A model generated the notes under the pieces. The model was not told the origin of the DNA. It saw only the letters and a program-made list of their open reading frames with translations, and made no database searches. A stretch of DNA of 64,000 nucleotides. Origin: Octopus vulgaris. Its lineage: Eukaryota. The stretch lies in contig OX597827.1 of assembly GCA_951406725.2 (NCBI GenBank), positions 33,976,001-34,040,000 on the forward strand, written 5' to 3'. Positions 1-45,960 of the stretch are shown here, one piece after another (position 1 is the stretch's first letter; every line of letters begins with the position of its first letter). The position numbers and the translations under genes were made by a program.

Positions 1-235
1 GAAGCAGTGAATACCAAAAAATCAACAGCAGTGTGAAACATCCAAATATTACCTTCCATGATTGGAATCAATGGTTTTGTGAAAATCTATGTTCTTGGAG
101 TCTGAACTGCTGTGGTTATTCTCATAAGTATGGCCGGTGTCAGTTACTTGTCATGAATTATTGTTACAAATCCACAAAAGTCCTCCTCTCCGATGGAAGC
201 TTTATTGATCTAAGTACACCCATAAAATGTAAGCG
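1..235 (+). CDS. Internal exon (5' end outside window) encoding PAN/apple-like Cys domain, copy B1
   Basis: Frame reads ..SSEYQKINSSVKHPNITFHDWNQWFCENLCSWSLNCCGYSHKYGRCQLL.. with C-x3-C-x5-C..Y..C spacing. Near-identical to 5547-5781. Two candidate donors: T|GTAAG after 228 and CG|GTTAGT after 235. Confidence 0.7.
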
Positions 236-345
236 GTTAGTTTTACGTTAAAATGTATTTGTTTTTTTTAAAACATTTTATAAGAAATGTTAGTGTAATA
301 CTTATGACCCTGTTCAGTGTATTTGTGACTGTTGATAGAGAACAG

Positions 346-416
346 AGGAAGTTATTCTCAAGCAAGAGACTTGATCACAGTGCTTGCAACTCCCACTAAT
401 GTAACCCAAGGATCAG
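346..416 (+). CDS. Putative short linker exon (GSYSQARDLITVLATPTNVTQGS)
   Basis: Acceptor AACAG|A and donor CAG|GTAAAA. Phase 2-1 fits the donor at 235 and the acceptor at 4881. Duplicated at 5892-5962. Confidence 0.45.
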
Positions 417-588
417 GTAAAAGTGTAAAACTTAGTGTTGGATTGTCTATCAACCACCAAGAGAATGTTCTCTTCGACAGACTTCCACACATATTTTCTT
501 ACCTAGCAGTTTCCTCCTGCACGAGATTTCGGGCTGGGATATGCGTATGTGAGACTTTGTGTGCGTGCGTGCGCGCGCGCGCGCGTGT

Positions 589-631
<43 letters not shown>

Positions 632-767
632 TGTGTGTGTGCGTGTGTGTGTATGTATAATACAAGTGAGAAGAAGAATGAATTTTTATTAGTTACAATT
701 GTTTCGATACCACTTCGCTTCGAACGCCATTGCACGCAAATTGGACGTAACATGTCTGGTTGGTTAA

Positions 768-1345
768 GGCAGTGAGCTGGCAGAAACGTTAGCACGCCGG
801 GCGAAATGCGTAGCCGTATTTCGTCTGCTGTTACGTTCTGAGTTCAAATTCCGCCGAGGTCGACTTTGCCATTCATACTTTCCGGGTCGATTAAATAAGT
901 ACTAGTTACGCACTGGGGTCGATATAATCGACTTAATCTGTTTGTCTATCCTTGTTTGTCCTCTCTGTGTATAGCCCCTTGTGGGTAGTAAAGAAATAGA
1001 TGTTTCGTCTGTCGTTATGTTCTGAGTTCATCCTTTCATCCTTTCGGGGTCGATAAATTAAGTTCAAGTTACGCACTGTGGTCGATGTAATCGACTTAAT
1101 CCGTTTGTCTGTCCTTGTTTGTCCCCTTGTGGTTAATAAAAAAAATAAGAACCGTTAGCATACCGGGCGAAATGCTTAACGGCATTTCGTTTGTCGTTAA
1201 GTTCTGATAAAAATCCCCCGGGGTCGACTTTGCCTTTAACCCTTTCGGGGTTGATAAATTAAGTACCAGTTGTGTACTGGAGTCGATCTAATCGACTGGT
1301 CCCCTACCTCAATATTTCGGGCCTTGTGCCTAGAGCAGAAAAGAA
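768..1345 (+). mobile_element. Trimeric tRNA-derived SINE
   Basis: Head GGCAGTGAGCTGGCAGAAACGTTAGCA with B-box-like GAGTTCAAATTCC and three tandem body units. Flanked by ATGT(C/G)TGGTTGGTT at 752-765 and 1347-1360. Confidence 0.85.
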
Positions 1346-2505: not shown

Positions 2506-2649
2506 TAAGAATATAAAAATTCTTTGGGCTTATGGAAGGCGTTCGTGTGGTGCTCATACGATGGCAAAGAGGTGGCGATTCGTTGCAGTTACACGATACG
2601 AATGCAAAAAAACAATGTTGTCAGACAGCTGCTACAAACGGACCAGCGG

Positions 2650-3341
2650 AAAGGCAGGTTAGGTATCTGGGTATCTTGGTGGATTCCTCCTTTTCGCCTT
2701 CGGCCCAGTGCGTCCATGCTGCCAACAAAGCGCGCGGAATTCTGTTTTTGATTCGACGGTCATTCGGAATGCTCACAGCAGCCATATTCCTACCACTCTA
2801 CGTCACGCTGGTGAGACCCATATTGGAGTATGGGATTCAAGCCTCTTCTCCTTATCTCCTCAAAGACATACAGCATCTCGAAAGAGTCCAGAGGCTGGCT
2901 ACCCGCATGGTTCATGGTCTCAAAAATTTGTCCTACGAAGAAAGGCTGAGGACGCTCGACCTTTATTCTCTTGAAAAACGCCGCCGCCGTGGTGATCTCA
3001 TTCTCGCCCACAACATCATAAACGGGAAGTGTAACCTCTCGAAAGAGCTGTTCTTCACTCCTGCTCCGGAGCGTCGGCTGCGGGGTCATTCCGAAAAGCT
3101 CTACCTGCGACGATTTCATCTCAATCGAAGGAGAGGAGCTTTCTCCGTCCGGCTTGCGGATCCGTGGAACAAGCTGCCAGACGAGATGGTGAAGATGCCG
3201 ACGACCGCTTTGTTCAAAGCCTCCCTGGACCTCAAGTGGCCTGAACTCTTTACATGAACACCACCCTGTACTTAACTCCATGTCCCCCTACATGGCCTTG
3301 CTATTTGCTTTTGAGCCAAATTAACTAACTAACTAACTAAC
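2650..3341 (+). mobile_element. CR1-clade LINE 3' fragment (ORF2 C-terminus, 3'UTR, (TAAC)n tail)
   Basis: YLGILVD..LYVTLVRPILEYG..LERVQRLATRMV..SYEERLRTLDLYSLEKRRRRGDLI..WNKLP. Ends in (TAAC)n at about 3322-3341. Confidence 0.92.
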
Positions 3342-4880: not shown

Positions 4881-5129
4881 GGATTGGAACCTATAAAATA
4901 TTTCTAAATAAAAATATAACTGGACTAAAACACGTACAAAAAGTGAAACGGTTATCGGAATGCGTGAGCGCGTGTGGAAACACGAGAGACTGTACCTGCT
5001 TATATTACCAACAGTTTAATTCTTCATGCAGTTTTTTCGATTCATATGACTGTGATAGAATTTTAAATTCTAAATTACCGGAAACAAATGATACCACTAC
5101 CGTACTGATGGTTCGTCAAGATGGGAAAG
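4881..5129 (+). CDS. Phase 1-1 exon encoding PAN/apple-like domain A
   Basis: Acceptor TTTTGTTTTATAG| and donor AAG|GTAAGT, 249 nt. Reads ..LSECVSACGNTRDCTCLYYQQFNSSCSFF.. with several N-glycosylation sequons. Confidence 0.8.
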
Positions 5130-5534: not shown

Positions 5535-5781
5535 GCAAAATAAAGAGAAGCAGTGAATACCAAAAAATCAACAGCAGCGTGAAACATCCAAATATTACCT
5601 TCGGTGATTTGAATCAATGGTTTTGTGAAAATCTATGTTCTTGGAGTCTGAACTGCTGTGGTTATTCTCATAAGTATGGCCGGTGTCAGTTACTTGTCAT
5701 GAATTATTGTTACAAATCCACAAAAGTCCTCCTCTCTGATGGAAGCTTTATTGATCTAAGTACACCCATAAAATGTAAGCG
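5535..5781 (+). CDS. Exon encoding PAN/apple-like domain, copy B2
   Basis: Acceptor TTATTGTAG| after a long pyrimidine tract, in frame with the 4881-5129 exon. Donor after 5774 or 5781. Confidence 0.75.
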
Positions 5782-5891
5782 GTTAGTTTTATGTTAAATT
5801 GTATTTGTTTTTTTTTAAACATTTTATAAGAAATGTTAGCGTAATACTTATGACCCTGTTCAGTGTACTTGTGACTGTTGATAGAGAACAG

Positions 5892-5962
5892 AGGAAGTTA
5901 TTCTCAAGCAAGAGACTTGGTCACAGTGCTTGCAACTCCCACTAATGTAACCCAAGGACCAA
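5892..5962 (+). CDS. Putative linker exon, copy 2
   Basis: Paralog of 346-416. The donor CAA|GTGAAA is weaker, but the frame joins the 14076 exon. Confidence 0.4.
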
Positions 5963-6113
5963 GTGAAAGTGTAAAACTTAGTGATGGATTGTCTATCAAC
6001 CACCAAGAGAATGTTCTCTTCGACAGACTTCCACACATATTTTCTTACCTAGCAGTTTCCTCCTGCACGAGATTTGCGGCTAGGATATGTGTATGCGAGA
6101 CTTTGTGTGCGTG

Positions 6114-6197
<84 letters not shown>

Positions 6198-6317
6198 AAT
6201 AATACATGTGAGAAGAAGAATGAATTTAGCACAAATTTATTAGTTACAGTTGTTTCGATACAACTTCGCTTCGAAAGCCGTTGCACGCAAATTGGACGTA
6301 ACACGTCTGGTTGGTTA

Positions 6318-6875
6318 AGGCGGCGAGCTGGCAGAAACGTTAGCACGCCGGGCGAAATGCGTAGCCGTATTTCGTCTGCTGTTACGTTCTGAGTTCAAAT
6401 TCCACCGTGGTCGACTTTGCCATTCATCCTTTCGGGGTCGATAAATTAAGTACTAGTTACGCACTGGGGTCGATATATTGTGGGTAGTAAAGAAATAGAT
6501 GTTTCATCTGCCGCTACCTTCTGAGTTCAAATTCCACCGGAGTCAACTTTGCCTTTTAATCTTTCGTGGTCGATAAATTAAGTACCAGTTACGCACTGGG
6601 GTCGATATATTCAACTTAATCCGTTTGTCTGTCCTTGTGTGTCCCCTCTGTGTTTAGCCCCTTTTGGGTAATAAAAAAATAAGAAACGTTAGCACACCCA
6701 AAATGTTTAGCAGTATTTCCACCGTCATTACGTTCTGAGTTCAAATTCCGCCGGAGTCGACTTTGCCTTTCATCCTTGCGGGTCGATAAATTAAGTATCA
6801 CTTATGTACTGGAGTCGATCTAATCGACTGGTCCCTACCTCAAAATTTCAGGCCTTGTGCCTAGGGCAGAAAAGA
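6318..6875 (+). mobile_element. Trimeric tRNA-derived SINE (duplicate of 768-1345)
   Basis: Same head and body units at the same relative position. The right TSD is missing. Confidence 0.85.
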
Positions 6876-14075: not shown

Positions 14076-14569
14076 GGTTATTCGCTGTACCTGATAATGG
14101 TGTGACATCTTCTGGTGATTTACCTGGAACCAAGGAAATAATAAGTACCAATAGCGTAACTGAAATACACACTAAACCACAAACCAGTTCTACAAGAGGA
14201 ACCAGTGACAAAATTAAAACCACTGCAATAACACCAGCTTCTTTAGTGACGTCCACAGCACCCATGTGCTCTTGTGCTTGTGAACATGCGACACAACAGC
14301 CTCCCACCAAGAAGGAGTTGGAAATTCTTAAGGATAACTTAAAAAAAGAGCTTGCCGTGGATAAAAAGAAACTGTCCAAAACAATTCGAGCCAAAACTAG
14401 TGCCCCTGACGAACGACGATCGGCTCAAGGTATAGGATTTATTGGTGTGATATTCCTATCTGCTGTACCTATCTTCATTATTATTATAGACTTCCCTCAA
14501 CTCTGTGCAGGCATGAAAACTTTTTGCAGGAATGTTTCTAGCTTGTGTTCCAACAGAACACCACATTAG
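14076..14569 (+). CDS. Terminal exon: Ser/Thr stalk, CSCAC motif, predicted helix, TM helix, short Cys-containing tail
   Basis: Acceptor TTTTCTTCATTTGAAG|, phase 1. Reads ..[64 protein letters not shown].. and stops at TAG 14567-14569. Confidence 0.85.
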
Positions 14570-26674: not shown

Positions 26675-28626
26675 TCTCTTATTATAAAAGGCAGATTTTA
26701 TCTGCCTCCCTTTGTCTCTTATAGAAATCTACAATATAGGATTTCTTCAATTACAATTTACCTAGCATTTTTAAGAGTAGAATAAATCGGGTCGTGCCAG
26801 GTTCAGTTTTTAAAATTTCAACCCCAATTAAGCAAAATTTAGAGAAAACTCACATTGTGGTGTGTAAGTCAAGGGCTTTTCTTAGTGTGGGCTACAGCAC
26901 ACGCACACGCACACACACAAAAACGGAGCGATCTGCTTCACTGATGCTATCACCCTAATTTCTCCTCCTTTCTCTTTGCAAACGTGCAACGATTAAAATG
27001 AAAGTATTTATATAAAACGAGAGAAGTGTACCTTAAACCACTACTCCAAAAAAAACAACACAGCAAACAGAAACAAATAAATACATAACGATTTACTAAA
27101 AACACAATATCTTCAATTAGAGTTTACCTAAGATTTTTCAAAGTACTTCCATTCGGTCATGGCATACAAAATTTCTTTCAATTTCACCCCCATTTCAGAA
27201 AAAATTCGAGAAAACTCAATGTTTTACCATTTCACTCTGCATATTACTCCCACTTCCTCTTTACACACATAGACACGCAAATATATAAATAAAATTGTAA
27301 GCTAACGTGTGTGTGTGTGTGTGTGTGTGTGCGTGTGTGAGTGTGTGGGTGTGTGTGTTCGTGTGTGTGTGTGTGAGGGTGCGTGTGTGTCTGTGTGTGT
27401 GCGTGCGTGTGTGTGAGTGTGTGACAGGGATGAGCAAGTCAAACTGGTCATCCTTTTTGCTAGATCACCTAACATCTAAAGTTATCTCTAAGTAGCAGTC
27501 GCCCAAAAGTGTATATAGACACACACATGTATGTATAATGTGTGTGTATATATTTCCATAGAGGTAACCATTCACTCCATACAAAGTTATTTAGGACGAA
27601 TTGGACGAATATAAGATCTAAAGTATATCCAAGTAGCAGAAAGATCGCCCAAAAGTGTATATAGATATTTAAATGTATTTATATATTCATCTATACACAC
27701 ATGTATGTATAATGTGTGTGTATATATTTCCATAGAGGTAACCATTCACTCCGCACAAAGTTTTTTAAAACGGACGAAAATCTTTATATATAAAAGAAAG
27801 GTTGTGTGTCTGTCTACTCCGATTTGGATTCCTAACTACTCCCACATTTTGCGATGCAGTTTAACCAAAACCGAGTATCTTATAGTCGTGATTCATATCG
27901 AGCCCTTCTGGGTATTAGCGCGCGTCTACGATGAGTCTACGATTTTACAAATAATTTACCATCATTTTCTCCCATTTTAATGCATATTTTTTTAAATAAA
28001 GGAAGTAACTCTCAAACTTCACACCAATATGCGTGCTCATATGCGACGTAATATCACATCAGCAGCATTTCCTCACACCATCCTTGCACTTGGCGAAGGC
28101 AAAATACCAGGGGATGAAAATGGTAATATTGCCATCGATTCCATTTGTACCATTGTTAAGACGCCTTCTGATCTCAGAGATGCAGTGTTCCAAGATCTAC
28201 AAGCTAATTATCAGAATATGGATTGGATTGGCCAAAAGGCTATACTGGCCCCGAGGAATAAAACTGTTCACCATATTAATGATGAAATGCTAAAACTCAT
28301 TCCTGGGGAAGTCTATGTATATCAGTTTATCGATACAACTCCTGACCCAGAGGACGTCATCAACTATCCAATAGAGGTACTCAATTCCTTTGAGCACCCC
28401 GGACTAACACCAGACATTCTCAAACTTAAAGTTGGTGCCCCTATAATGCTCATCAGAAATTTGGTTCCCCCAAAACAATGCAATGGCACACGTTTGATCG
28501 TTAAGTCCTTATCTCCCACCGTAAACTTATATCAATATTTGCCTGAATAATCATCATAATTCAGTGCAATCATTAACAGTACTTTCAAGCAATTCAGCCC
28601 CGAGCAACGCCGGGCAATTCTGCTAG
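26675..28626 (+). mobile_element. Composite Helitron with Pif1 helicase fragment
   Basis: 5' A|TC ends at 26675 and 27781. 28029-28520 reads AILAPRNK..LKLKVGAPIMLIRNL..CNGTRLIV. 3' CCCCGAGCAACGCCGGG hairpin + CTAG|T. Confidence 0.88.
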
Positions 28627-30342: not shown

Positions 30343-31575
30343 TCAGGTCATCCCATAAGTTCTGTCCGATTTTACCTTTTCTAAAATTGAATGAAATTTA
30401 ATCGTATTTTAGACTGTCTAATGGAATTAAAAATGCATTTGTGTACATTTAAACTAATTAAATGTTATTTTACAGAATAGTAGGAATAAAATTTCTAACC
30501 TGGAAGTATCCAAAGAGCATTTAAGGCACATAATGCTTTATGAGTACAAAAAAGGAATCTCTGCAGCCGAAGCGACTCGAAACATACACTCAGTTTATGG
30601 GAAAGAATGCTGGAATGAAAGAACTTGCAGAAGATGGTTTGCAAAATTCAGAAGTGGAGATTTTAGACTTGAAGATGAAGATCGAGCAGGACGTCCATTT
30701 GAGTTTGATGATAAGCTCTTTGAGGCATTACTGGAAGAAAATCCTGCATTATCAGTTGAAGAATTGGCAATAAAGCTTAGTTCAAACCATACAACTGTTC
30801 ATCGTCATCTTCAACAACTTGGAATGGTTTCTAAACTTGGAAAATAGGTGCCTCATGAATTGTCCGAATCCAACCGCAAATCCCGGGTTGTCATCTGCTC
30901 TTCTCCCCATTCTCGCGAACTCATTTCACCCTTTTTCGATAGACTTGTGACTGGTAATGAAAAATGGATCTTCTATCGAAATGTTAAACGTCGTAAACAG
31001 TGGCTTGGTAAAAGGGAAAAAGCTCAACCACAACAACCATGGGGAAAAGATTCTTCTCTCTATCTGGTGGGATTGCAAAGGAGTAATTCACTTTGAATTG
31101 TTACCACCTAATGAAACAATCAATGCTCAAGTCTACTATCAGCAATTAGCTTTGAAGAAAAAAAGACCTGCTTTAGTGAATCGAAAAGGAGTGATGCTTC
31201 ATCAGGACAATGTGTGACCCCACACTGCAAAGATCACATCACAGAAAATCGAAGAGCTTGGTTGGGAAAAATTCCTCATCCACTTATTCTCCCGACCTTG
31301 CTCCTTCAGACTATCATTTGTTTCGTAGTTTACCGAATCATTTGGGGGACATAACTTTGGCAAGCCAGGAGGAGGTCGAAACTGACATTTCAGAGTTCTT
31401 CGCTTTGAAATCAAAAGAGTTTTACAGTGATGGGATTAAAAAGCTTGTAAAAAGATGGAAGGAAGTCATAGATAATCAGGGAAAGTACATTGATGATTAA
31501 ATTTCAATTAAATATAACATTTGATCACTTGTTTTCTTTATTGGAAATTCGGACAGAACTTATGGGATGACCTGA
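30343..31575 (+). mobile_element. Full-length defective mariner (Mos1-like DD34D)
   Basis: Perfect 27-bp TIR TCAGGTCATCCCATAAGTTCTGTCCGA with TA TSD. VTGNEKWI, HQDN and YSPDLAPSDYHLF motifs, with stops and frameshifts. Confidence 0.95.
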
Positions 31576-41330: not shown

Positions 41331-42615
41331 TGAGGGGTGTATGAAAAGTTTTGAGCCTAACCTAGAAACAGGGCTGCTAGGTAACTGAAACAATTTTTGC
41401 TGGTAAGCACAGTCTTTTCGGAGTATTGTTGCTCATTTTCATGATTTTGAAATTTTTTATGTTACAGATTTTTGAATAAACAAGTGTCGAGGTTACAAGG
41501 AAAATGAAGAAAACTGAGTATCGTGCTGTCAAATGAGTATCTTCATTTGAAAGGCAAGACTCCATCAGAAATACATGAAGATACAGTGAGAACCTTAACA
41601 GACAATGCTCCTTCATATGCAACAGTCAAACGCTGGGTAAATGAATTCCAGCGTCGCAGGGAGAGTGTGAAAGATGATCACACACGAGGGAGGCCTCCAG
41701 CTGCAACCACCGAGGACAACATTGACCTTGCTCTTGGTATGGTAATGCAAGATCATCGAATATCAATCATGTCGCCAGATAGCTGATAGACTGGGAATAT
41801 CAAATGAAAGAGCAGACAACATTATGACAAAAGAACTTGGGTTCTCAAAGGTTTCTGCAAGGTGGATCCCTCGCCTTTTGATCCTGAACAGAAACGCACA
41901 AGGTGCACTTGTTCACAAGCAAACTGGGACTGTTTGAAGCCGATGAAGAGAATTTACTTGCTCGTTTTATTACTATGGACGAAAGTGGGGTTCATCACTA
42001 CCAGCCTGAAACCAAAGAACAATCAAAGCAGTGGAAGCACGCATGTTCTCCTACTCTAAAGAAGGCCAGGTCATTTCCTTCAGATGACAAGGTCATGGCG
42101 TCAGTTTTTTTGGATTCTCAAGGTATCTTACTGATCGATAACCTTGAAAAGGGTCACACCGTGACAGGAATATTATTCTCAGCTACTGTAATGTCTCCAG
42201 GAAGCAATCAAAGAAAAAAGGCCAGGAATGCTCACCAGAGGAGTCCTTTTTCATCACGACAATGCTCCAGCCCACACCTCAGTGGTTGCCATGGCAACAA
42301 TTCGTGATTGTGGATACGAACTTATTCTCCATCTGCTTTATTCGCCAGACTTAGCCCTCTCTGACTTTCAGCTATTCCCAAATATGAAAAAAGCTTGGTT
42401 GCCATTTTGCCACTAACAATGACGTCATAGACACTGTAGGAAGTTCCTTAGAGTCTCAAACAAAAGAGTTCCTCTATGCCGCGATAATGGCACTTCAGCA
42501 CCGCTGGAGAAAGTGTTCAGCCATCAAAGAGGACTATGTTGAAAAATAAATCATCAGATGTCTTGTACTATGTTTTAAAGTTTTTTGAGGCTCAAGATTT
42601 TTCAGATACCCCTCA
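41331..42615 (+). mobile_element. Full-length defective mariner
   Basis: TIRs TGAGGGGTGTATGAAAAG..GAGCCT and AGGCTC..TTTTCAGATACCCCTCA, TA TSD. ITMDESGVHHY, HHDNAPAH and YSPDLALSDFQLFP motifs. Confidence 0.93.
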
Positions 42616-43150: not shown

Positions 43151-43389
43151 ATTTCATTACATACATCACTGGATTTAGACAAAGTTCTGGTTTAAGCATC
43201 CCATATAACACTTACATAATTTTTTTAATTTTTGGAATATTTTTTGTTTTGGTTTTTGTATAATCATATGAATTTCCATGTGTAGAATACAAACTGGTAA
43301 AAGTTTTATGAAAATTCAAAAAAAAATAAAAAAAGGTACGAGGGTTATATGAGGTACTGAAATTAGAATTCCTCCAGGATTTAATTTCG

Positions 43390-45960
43390 AGCTACTATTA
43401 ATTTCAGCCTCTGATAATATTATCAGAGAAATTGATAGCATTATGCATGCGAGGAAATCACTTCTTTTTTTCGAGGATTCCACCTGGATTAAGAAGAGTG
43501 ATGATTCTCTTTTCGATGTACCGATGGGGGCATACGACGGGGCTGAGTTATGTATGCTCATAGGAGCCTGTATTCTTCATAATCTAAAAATAGAATTCCC
43601 ATTTATAGATGCAGTTTTATATAGGGATGACGACCTTATAGCCACGCATAATCTAAACGGCCATGAATCAGATAGACTTAGGAAGGACCTTATTGCTTTC
43701 TTTCAAAGGATGGGCTTACGGGTTACAATAGATGCTAACCTGAATAGTGTAAATTTTTTAGACGTAAATTTTAATGTAAGGTCGGATAGATTTAAACCTT
43801 TCCGTAAGCCCAATGAAAAGCTATCGTATATTAGCAAAGATTCGAACCATCCACCAGTTATCCTTAGGAACTTAGTCAGCAATGTAGGTAGAAGAATATC
43901 TTCAATTTCTTCGGACGAGGCAGCGTTCCATAATGCTGCACCTTATTACGATAGCGCATTAAAGAATAGTGGATTCTCTGAGAAGATCCAATACAGCCAG
44001 CTTAATGCTGATAATAATGCTGCACGAAGAACTAGGACCAGGAAAGTTTTGTGGTTCAACCCGGCTTTCAATTTGGCCGTAAAGACTAATATAGGTAAGG
44101 AATTTTTGAGATTAGTCTCTAAGCATTTTAAGCAGGGCCATAAATTCTATAGGATATTTAATAGAAGAACCCTGAAGGTTAACTATTCTTGTTGCAGAAA
44201 TTTCGCCTCTTACATTAGCCATCATAATAGGAATCTGATTGAGATTAAACATGGTGCCGAGCCCATTAAGAAATGCAATTTCAAAAATGAAAACTCCTGT
44301 CCGTTAGAAGGGAAATGTCTAGTAAAAGGAGTAGTTTATAGAGCCAAGGTACAAATAGAAGGCTCATCGGAATACAAGACATATACAGGGGCTTCAGAAA
44401 ATTCGTTTAAAACACGATTTTATTCGCATAAAAATTCATTTAGATACCCAGAGAATAGGAAGAGGACCAGCCTAGCAAAATATGTCTGGGAACTAAAAGA
44501 AAAGGAAACCCCACCTTTCAACGTGACATGGAGCATTCTGGACAGAGCGGCACCATACAGGCATTGAGCACACAGGAATAATTTTAAATGCAATCTTTGC
44601 CTATTAGAGAAACTGTTTATTTTATTCAAAGACAATAATTCTTTGAATCAAAGAAGTGAGCTGATGAACTTATGTAGACACGCAACCAAATTTAAAATGT
44701 CAAATATAAATATACCATATGGATATGGTATATATTTTGTATTTTGATTTTTGAAATTTTGATTTTGACTCTTGGACTAGTACGTAAACGCGACGATGGA
44801 TTTGTTTCGCGCTATGCAGATTTCATTCCGTATAGCAAAGTCTCATGCATATATTTTGTTTATTTTACTTATATTTCTACATATACCTTAGGAAAAACCT
44901 TCGGCTTTGTTTATTTCATGTTATTGTACTGTATAGGATTACTTTGATTTTTAATTTATAGATGATCCAAAATAGGGTGTTATATTTTATATGTCTTTCG
45001 TATATTTTTCATTATTGCACTCACCATTTTTTTAAAAAAGCAATGTTGTCAAAAATTAGAATTTTGATGTAAATATGTGTATAGCAATGGATATGTATTT
45101 GTAAGCATGCGTCTCTGTGTATGTGTAAGTGAGCGTATGCTTGTGCTTAAGCACACACATACACGTCTGTATGTGTATATATCCATTTGAACTTGTGTGT
45201 TTGTATACTTGTCTCTATATATATGTCAATAACGTGGTTACACAGCTTGTATACATAATTTTTCCTATTTCGTTTTTTCCCCACCCCTCCTTTTTCTTTT
45301 TTCCTTCCCCCTTCTTCGTTCCTTTTTCTCTCTCTTCCTTTCTTTCGTTTTTTTTTCTCTAACTGATACTGGTGCATACAACTTTACGTCCCCCTCACTT
45401 ACTTGTCTTAAGCTTTGCTCCGTAAATAAGGAACGCTACATTAGCATCGATGATTTTAACTTGCGTGCGAGATAGATTGCGTATATATATGCATGCATGC
45501 ATTTGTGTGTATATTTTATATTTATATTTATACGTCTGTATATGTATGGCGTTTGCACGCATCCTTCTGTGTATGTTGATATATATATATGTACACTTTA
45601 ATATGAATATGTGTTGCAGTGTAATATTTATAATGCATTTTAATTTCTATGTATTAATTATATTTCCTTCATTAACGTCAATATGTATTTTATTCAATGT
45701 AAGGTTTTTCCTCGAATTTTATAATTTTTATAATTTTTTTATATATATACATATATATTTTTGAGCTCATTTTTTGTTTATCGCTCGAAGATTGACCGTT
45801 ATTTCTAAAGGGCCAATCAAACAAGTCCATTTTTTAAAGGTGTAGCGTTTGTAAGAGTCTGGATTGAATTGATATATCGGTTCCATTCTAACAAAAACTG
45901 TCTGATGAACGGCAACGAGAAACTCAGAGTAACAGATTTTGTTGAATTTTCTGCTGCTTT
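43390..45960 (+). mobile_element. Penelope-like element, 5'-truncated (RT + C-terminal GIY-YIG + long 3' region)
   Basis: FDVPMGAYDGAE, LYRDD, FLDV, SNHPP, WFNP, CPLEGKCL, GVVY..YTGASE..FKTRF..H, CNLCLLEK and LNQRSEL..CRH. Confidence 0.92.
45898..45935 (+). ncRNA. Minimal type I hammerhead ribozyme motif at the PLE 3' end
   Basis: ctgt-CTGATGA-acggcaacga-GAAAC-tcaga-GTA-acag. Confidence 0.7.

Follow-up and report, generated by a model that had tools for sequence, protein, structure and literature searches.

An apparently unnamed membrane-proximal module at the C-terminus of mollusc surface proteins with many kinds of ectodomain

Introduction

What is the segment of about 90 residues that anchors the C-terminal end of an octopus protein in the membrane, and why does it recur below so many kinds of ectodomain? 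The question is raised by positions 14076-14569 of a 64,000-nucleotide stretch of Octopus vulgaris DNA (assembly GCA_951406725.2, contig OX597827.1, positions 33,976,001 to 34,040,000 of the forward strand; hereafter the window), where a gene encoding PAN/Apple repeats, a mucin stalk and this module, in that order, has its final, phase-1 exon. A sequence-only reading had described the segment as a Cys cluster, a charged helix, a basic/Ser motif and a hydrophobic helix closed by Asp, and had proposed an unnamed module for oligomerisation, shedding or anchoring that might define a family of receptors with variable ectodomains. As far as sequence comparison can tell, the module is a real and apparently unnamed domain that defines a large family of mollusc surface proteins. 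We tentatively propose that it assembles its carriers at the membrane.

Results

A single exon encodes stalk, module, membrane helix and tail

14076-14569, + strand: terminal phase-1 exon (stalk, module, transmembrane helix, tail and stop), with a polypyrimidine-AG acceptor and a splice joint in a contig of run X2
14102-14263, + strand: mucin-like stalk of 54 residues, 41% of them Ser or Thr
14267-14281, + strand: CxCxC cluster, dispensable, modal Cys number three
14306-14353, + strand: charged amphipathic heptad helix closing with the conserved Leu30 (AlphaFold helix 16-30 in two models; hydrophobic moment)
14357-14425, + strand: core (basic/Ser) motif V-x-K-x-x-L-S-x-x-x-R-x-K-T-S-A-x-D-x-R-x-S-A, predicted short helix 38-45 and loop (conservation table; AlphaFold model)
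14432-14488, + strand: transmembrane (TM) helix, 19 hydrophobic residues, G58 and G61 on the conserved face
14489-14491, + strand: invariant Asp76, inner membrane boundary (126/126 members)
14492-14566, + strand: short amphipathic cytoplasmic tail of 25 residues (stop at 14567-14569)

The four elements of the sequence-only reading do lie together on one phase-1 exon, with the module read in frame +2 at 14264-14491. Octopus sinensis LOC118765931 ends in exactly the protein sequence encoded by 14264-14566. The terminal exon and the two exons before it (PAN-A and PAN-B, described below) are all in phase 1, and their joined reading has no internal stop. A contig of run X2, a run guessed to be RNA, fuses the end of the PAN-B exon, from either of its two copies, directly to 14076. 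The intron upstream of 14076 has no cover in the three runs guessed to be RNA and is covered in the fourth run; whether a run is RNA or not is a guess throughout.

The module defines a large family in molluscs

At E<=0.001, a phmmer search of 1.84 billion representatives with the module matched 683 clusters (50% identity). The best 150 were listed and the query was the octopus sequence, so the taxonomic range rests on the top matches and may extend beyond molluscs. All 32 matches for which an organism is named come from molluscs: bivalves (oysters, mussels, scallops, Mactra, Solemya), gastropods (Patella, Haliotis, Littorina, Batillaria, Nucella, Aplysia) and cephalopods (Octopus, cuttlefish). 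Seven matches in one set of 10 carry no organism. Three ESM Atlas clusters without names (scores 0.92-0.94) have Mollusca as their commonest phylum and share no common Pfam 38.1 family; the named ESM Atlas clusters gave no usable match. Word-index homolog searches, which are insensitive, returned 5, 2 and 12 matches and set no bound on taxonomic range. No relative was found in viral contigs.

Twelve kinds of ectodomain, here called heads, stand in front of the module. Among 77 longer proteins, picked by length from 152, 39 had a Pfam match, in some cases below the curated cut-off: C-type lectin (18), IgGFc-binding (10), Sushi (3), PAN (3), EGF, ephrin-receptor-like, Ig and PLAT (2 each), and SRCR, TSP1, WSC and Methyltransf_FA (1 each), together with one weak DUF match. 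Thus the initial statement that the pattern ends many uncharacterised mollusc proteins with varied ectodomains was borne out. One member of a module cluster, P0171, carries the source name 'homoserine kinase', which is probably a misannotation.

A degenerate DNA pattern for the core, expected to catch about 31 of the 126 known members, hit 29 metagenome contigs that look like host DNA, and all 29 are true members by the module hidden Markov model (E<=1.5e-13). The same pattern matched once in prokaryote genomes, within a stop-filled frame. The module matches are not due to chance. One contig series holds 19 of the 29 loci, suggesting perhaps tens of copies in each genome, a figure that alleles and several individuals may inflate. 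At locus L021 a stop stands directly before the core and Val replaces the invariant Asp; this is probably a pseudogene copy.

The module has homologs in abundance and, in the libraries compared here (Pfam-A, NCBIfam and PDB), matches no characterised domain. Against Pfam-A, P0002 reached at best E=0.033 (14 bits, the cut-off being 25); over 99 aligned members no Pfam-A family matches more than 6, and matches in the module region are weak. NCBIfam gave nothing specific. A profile of the module found among PDB sequences at best the GRP94 lid region (E=0.18) and the junction of the third loop and TM6 of 5-HT1D (E=0.85), likenesses that we treat as chance. No description of the module was found in literature searches that covered openly accessible text.

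Conservation follows one face of the membrane helix

Conservation was read from 126 members with <70% identity that were not chosen by pattern; a wider set of 137 adds 11 rows from metagenome loci. The best-kept residues among the 126 are D76 (126), G58 (125), R51 (124), S46 (121, with Cys in the other 5), D49 (120), S38 and S53 (118 each), L30 (117), R42 (115) and G61 (110). From R51 to D76, conservation is periodic as in a helix and recurs at 100 degrees (permutation p=0.0024). The conserved face consists of R51, A/S54, G58, G61, L65, I72 and D76, and the charged residues at both membrane boundaries sit on this one face. It includes two small-residue positions; small residues in TM helices are typical of helix-helix packing.

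The coil and the Cys cluster are more variable than the membrane-proximal core. In helix 16-30, which is amphipathic, L/I/V residues recur with a heptad interval, and the hydrophobic moment is 0.47 against 0.28 after shuffling, exceeding the shuffles in 94% of the 126. Among the 93 members with enough sequence, 69 have the three-Cys cluster and 62 have exactly three Cys. The Cys cluster is common, is not obligatory and is not a defining feature; in this respect the pattern first described was too narrow. Two expanded subfamilies, L001, L004 and their relatives, have no CxCxC and have repetitive, Val/Thr-rich stalks with many N-x-T sites.

At position 46 (window 14399-14401), 121 of the 126 have Ser, 5 have Cys and none has Ala, Gly or Thr; one Thr occurs among the 11 metagenome-locus rows. 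The Cys forms fall in separate parts of the module tree.

The basic motif lies outside the cell

Asn within N-x-S/T makes up 147 of 287 Asn on the N-terminal side and 23 of 140 in the tails (p=1.6e-12). Because glycosylation sites are enriched on the N-terminal side, the basic motif is placed outside the cell. A cytoplasmic reading of the basic motif, as a phosphorylation site, was ruled out by this enrichment together with the extracellular heads. Of 64 long proteins, 21 passed a crude test for a signal peptide; six of these 21 are near-copies belonging to a single Mytilus cluster. Many long-protein models look 5'-incomplete.

The tails have a median of 21 residues. An immunoreceptor tyrosine-based activation motif (ITAM) was found in 0 of 131 and motifs like its inhibitory counterpart (ITIM) in 7, so any signal would need a partner. 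Cys occurs within 15 residues after the TM helix in 47 of 131, the tail helix is amphipathic in 87% of 100, and net charge is positive on both sides of the membrane (+3.5 and +2.3). KKxx-type signals are not enriched in the tails (4 against 2.9 shuffled). Lys or Arg inside the TM core was seen in 0 of 137.

Cleavage motifs are sparse in the same 137 members: furin 4, minimal RxxR 13, S1P-like 27, SEA-type 0, GPS 3, S74-type 0 and GDPH 0. With furin, SEA and GPS motifs essentially absent, shedding is unlikely.

Structure predictions give helices without a compact fold

AlphaFold places helices at 16-30, 38-45 and 52-96 of the module (predicted local distance difference test 85; predicted template modelling score, pTM, 0.41). 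For the outer part alone it again returns two of these helices (pTM 0.38). Confident helices with such low pTM argue against a compact single-chain fold. A three-copy homo-oligomer prediction, made without an alignment and outside calibration, scored 0.02, a value that counts neither for nor against assembly. Foldseek gave 0 matches in the PDB, and a viral library gave none at E<=0.001. Wide structural searches with these extended-helix models found generic helices alone, with a best Z of 5.2 (single long helices), or 2.9 for the outer part.

Exon boundaries suit the exchange of heads

The stretch from coil to TM helix is uninterrupted by introns in 28 of the 29 metagenome loci. In 20 of 27 loci the top-scoring acceptor close to the frame's 5' end has phase 1, compared with 36% in control frames (p=5e-5); once near-copies are grouped, it does so in 8 of 10 (p=0.005). 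This test was post hoc, used the first 90 bases and a hand-made score, and dropped L017 (open end) and L021 (no candidate), and most loci come from two contig series. An earlier test over whole open reading frames did not discriminate (15/28 against a 52% background). By eye, upstream frames in these loci resemble lectin, PAN and Sushi exons. In class 1-1 exon-shuffled mosaic proteins, domains lie on phase 1-1 exons; the domains in the window do so as well, and the module is unsplit. These observations fit a terminal cassette that is open to phase 1-1 modules. Because the module tree is too poorly resolved to count events, repeated shuffling remains unproven; head types cluster weakly on it (17 label changes, the minimum being 8 and the shuffled value 22.1).

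Discussion

We start from what is established: the exon and its splice, the family and the range of its heads, the outside-in orientation given by glycosylation sites, and the conserved helix face. We favor, with reserve, the view that the module is a mollusc-wide membrane assembly cassette of type I surface glycoproteins that oligomerises its carriers, a view to which we give slightly less than an even chance. A single terminal phase-1 exon provides the stalk, the module, the membrane helix and the tail. Because these lie on one such exon, any phase 1-1 binding domain could join them, for example C-type lectin, FcGBP-type, Sushi, PAN, Ig, EGF, SRCR and others. Chains may pack with copies of themselves or with paralogues through the R51-A/S54-G58-G61-L65-I72-D76 face and the heptad helix. 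The three cysteines, where present, might cross-link chains, since an odd number leaves one free for another chain. Clustering could then raise the avidity of weakly binding heads that a mucin stalk holds out from the surface of an epithelium or of haemocytes. The conserved TM face, the heptad helix, the low pTM, the odd Cys number, the N-x-S/T bias, the 12 heads and the phase-1 acceptors all speak for assembly.

Several observations weigh against it. Of 93 members, 24 lack the Cys cluster, among them whole subfamilies. Covariation in the 137 sequences, a shallow set, gives mostly local pairs and no convincing long-range ones. The module tree is poorly resolved, and its strongly supported branches force at most one origin per head type. 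Moreover, near-invariance of polar residues over hundreds of distant paralogues exceeds what self-assembly usually demands and equally fits a fixed partner. Such constancy in very distant paralogues, together with tails that lack signals, makes a single conserved partner a close rival. The module would then dock all members onto one membrane protein (an adaptor, co-receptor, channel or transporter) in the style of basigin or of adaptor-coupled receptors, with heads that sense and a partner that signals. D76, G58, R51 and D49, the boundary charges on one face, the short tails and the greater variability of coil and Cys cluster all suit such docking. However, the TM core has none of the Lys or Arg of classical adaptor-coupled receptors, and no candidate partner was identified. 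We regard docking as possible and less probable than assembly, and the two are not mutually exclusive. A bolder version, somewhat less probable again, is that hundreds of paralogues with exchangeable heads form a plug-in receptor platform, docking through the invariant membrane-boundary motif on one signalling partner or assembling in mixed combinations. This would be an independently evolved counterpart of the vertebrate adaptor-coupled receptor families, overlooked for want of a database family that covers the shared part.

Two other functions are unlikely. The module could be a processing site, released by a protease at its basic, membrane-proximal motif or cleaving itself through Ser46, as the strict choice of Ser or Cys at position 46 of the 126, a nucleophile pattern with Cys in separate parts of the tree, might suggest. 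But cleavage motifs are scarce, one metagenome row has Thr at this position, and the best-kept residues run through the membrane to its inner boundary, where a cut site would not require them. Slightly more doubtful still is a sorting or lipid-binding anchor for apical microvilli or secretory granules, with the basic and tail helices on opposite membrane faces. The positive charge on both sides, the amphipathic tail helix and the Cys after the TM helix would fit, and mucin stalks with FcGBP or lectin heads would suit mucosal surfaces; yet lipid binding leaves position-exact Gly, Ser and Asp unexplained, and KKxx-type signals are not enriched. Thus, of the three functions first suggested, assembly and anchoring are consistent with the conservation pattern, and shedding at the basic motif finds little support in the cleavage motifs. 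The family with variable ectodomains stands, whereas its role as a receptor gains no support from tails so short and free of ITAMs.

By analogy, the module resembles the unvarying modules that mosaic surface proteins carry next to the membrane (ZP, SEA, GAIN, lectin necks and adaptor-docking helices), and it lacks the marks of membership in each class where these can be examined. ZP-module proteins (PAN-mucin-ZP, EGF-ZP, SRCR-CUB-ZP) likewise keep a constant module below shuffled heads, including PAN with a mucin stalk, followed by a TM helix and a short tail. However, ZP is a 260-residue beta module, and the ZP domain is followed by a furin site, R-x-K/R-R, whereas the octopus module has about 60 residues, is helical, has no furin site and is conserved through the TM helix; none of the 77 long members has a ZP match. 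SEA and GAIN/GPS also sit between mucin stalk and membrane under varied heads and have conserved Ser, Thr or Cys. Their cleavage motifs, G-S-V-V-V type for SEA and H-L-T/S for GAIN/GPS, are absent from the module, which is predicted to be helical. The motif of the Peptidase S74/MYRF self-cleaving chaperone, S-D-x-R-x-K, is missing from all 137 members, with D-x-R alone common to both. The necks of collectins, scavenger receptor A and CD8-type proteins also place a Cys cluster and a heptad helix beside a stalk and cluster lectin-type heads, and the amphipathic heptad helix of the module is of the kind expected of a coiled-coil neck. In contrast to these necks, the module has no collagen that we could see and no match in sequence or fold above background, and the polar residues at its two membrane boundaries are invariant. 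Adaptor-coupled immunoreceptors and basigin-type ancillary subunits share its variable ectodomain, short tail, single conserved TM face and Arg at the outer boundary; unlike the immunoreceptors, it has no charge in the TM core and has an invariant Asp at the inner boundary.

Among molluscs, the Biomphalaria gene clusters PTC1/GRC, PTC2 and LG5R encode FN3/disordered, Ig-like or EGF/fucolectin types (PMC7494358, PMC13712769). From the accessible portions of these papers, they are alike in being clustered, in crossing the membrane once and in combining variable heads with little cytosolic sequence, and those portions mention no such module. Four short motif strings of the module are absent from 4 text supplements of PMC7494358, in which text and not PTC protein sequences was searched. 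The accessible portions of PMC13027682, PMC10140915 and PMC12842671 contain no description of the module.

The module unites, as one family across three mollusc classes, proteins labelled 'uncharacterized', 'mucin-like', 'C-type lectin' and 'netrin receptor-like', and it gives that family a searchable signature. Lineage-specific domain combinations in bivalve lectins are noted without explanation in the accessible part of PMC10140915, and a shared, shuffled anchor could explain the origin of some of them. Should all members rely on a single partner or a single assembly rule, mutations of R51, G58 and D76 would offer a handle on a large share of the surface proteins of oysters, mussels, scallops, snails and cephalopods.

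Other features of the octopus gene and the window

1-228, + strand: 3' portion of a PAN-B exon copy, truncated at the window edge (tblastn with P0003; 94% DNA duplicate of 5547-6477; donor GT after 228 read from sequence)
4881-5129, + strand: PAN-A exon, phase 1-1, 83 codons (AG/GT boundaries; Pfam PAN_3 E=5.9e-4 and PAN_1 E=2.9e-3, both below the curated cut-off)
5535-5774, + strand: PAN-B exon, phase 1-1, 80 codons (AG/GT boundaries; no Pfam match)

The Octopus bimaculoides relative P0006, which carries the PAN-B unit alone, is named 'Apple domain-containing' in UniRef. The PAN-B exon occurs twice, together with its flanking intron (window 1-926 and 5547-6477, 94% identity), which is, to judge from the sequence, a recent internal expansion of the ectodomain.

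A cryptic GT at 14429/14430, just before the TM helix, is used by gene model P0004, in which the TM helix is dropped and two tandem paralogues are fused; similar fusions occur in gene models P0008 and P0051. This joint was not found in the contigs, none of which extends 31 bases past the site in each direction, and a secreted isoform may exist. The octopus paralogue with the adjacent number, LOC118765932, has a module 85% identical, and P0005/P0124 cover it and a far more distant O. vulgaris member. The window DNA is rich in repeats. It has open frames at 2517-3254, 27996-28547, 30458-31497, 41508-42413 and 43353-44564, which resemble remnants of reverse-transcriptase, helicase and mariner-type transposase genes.
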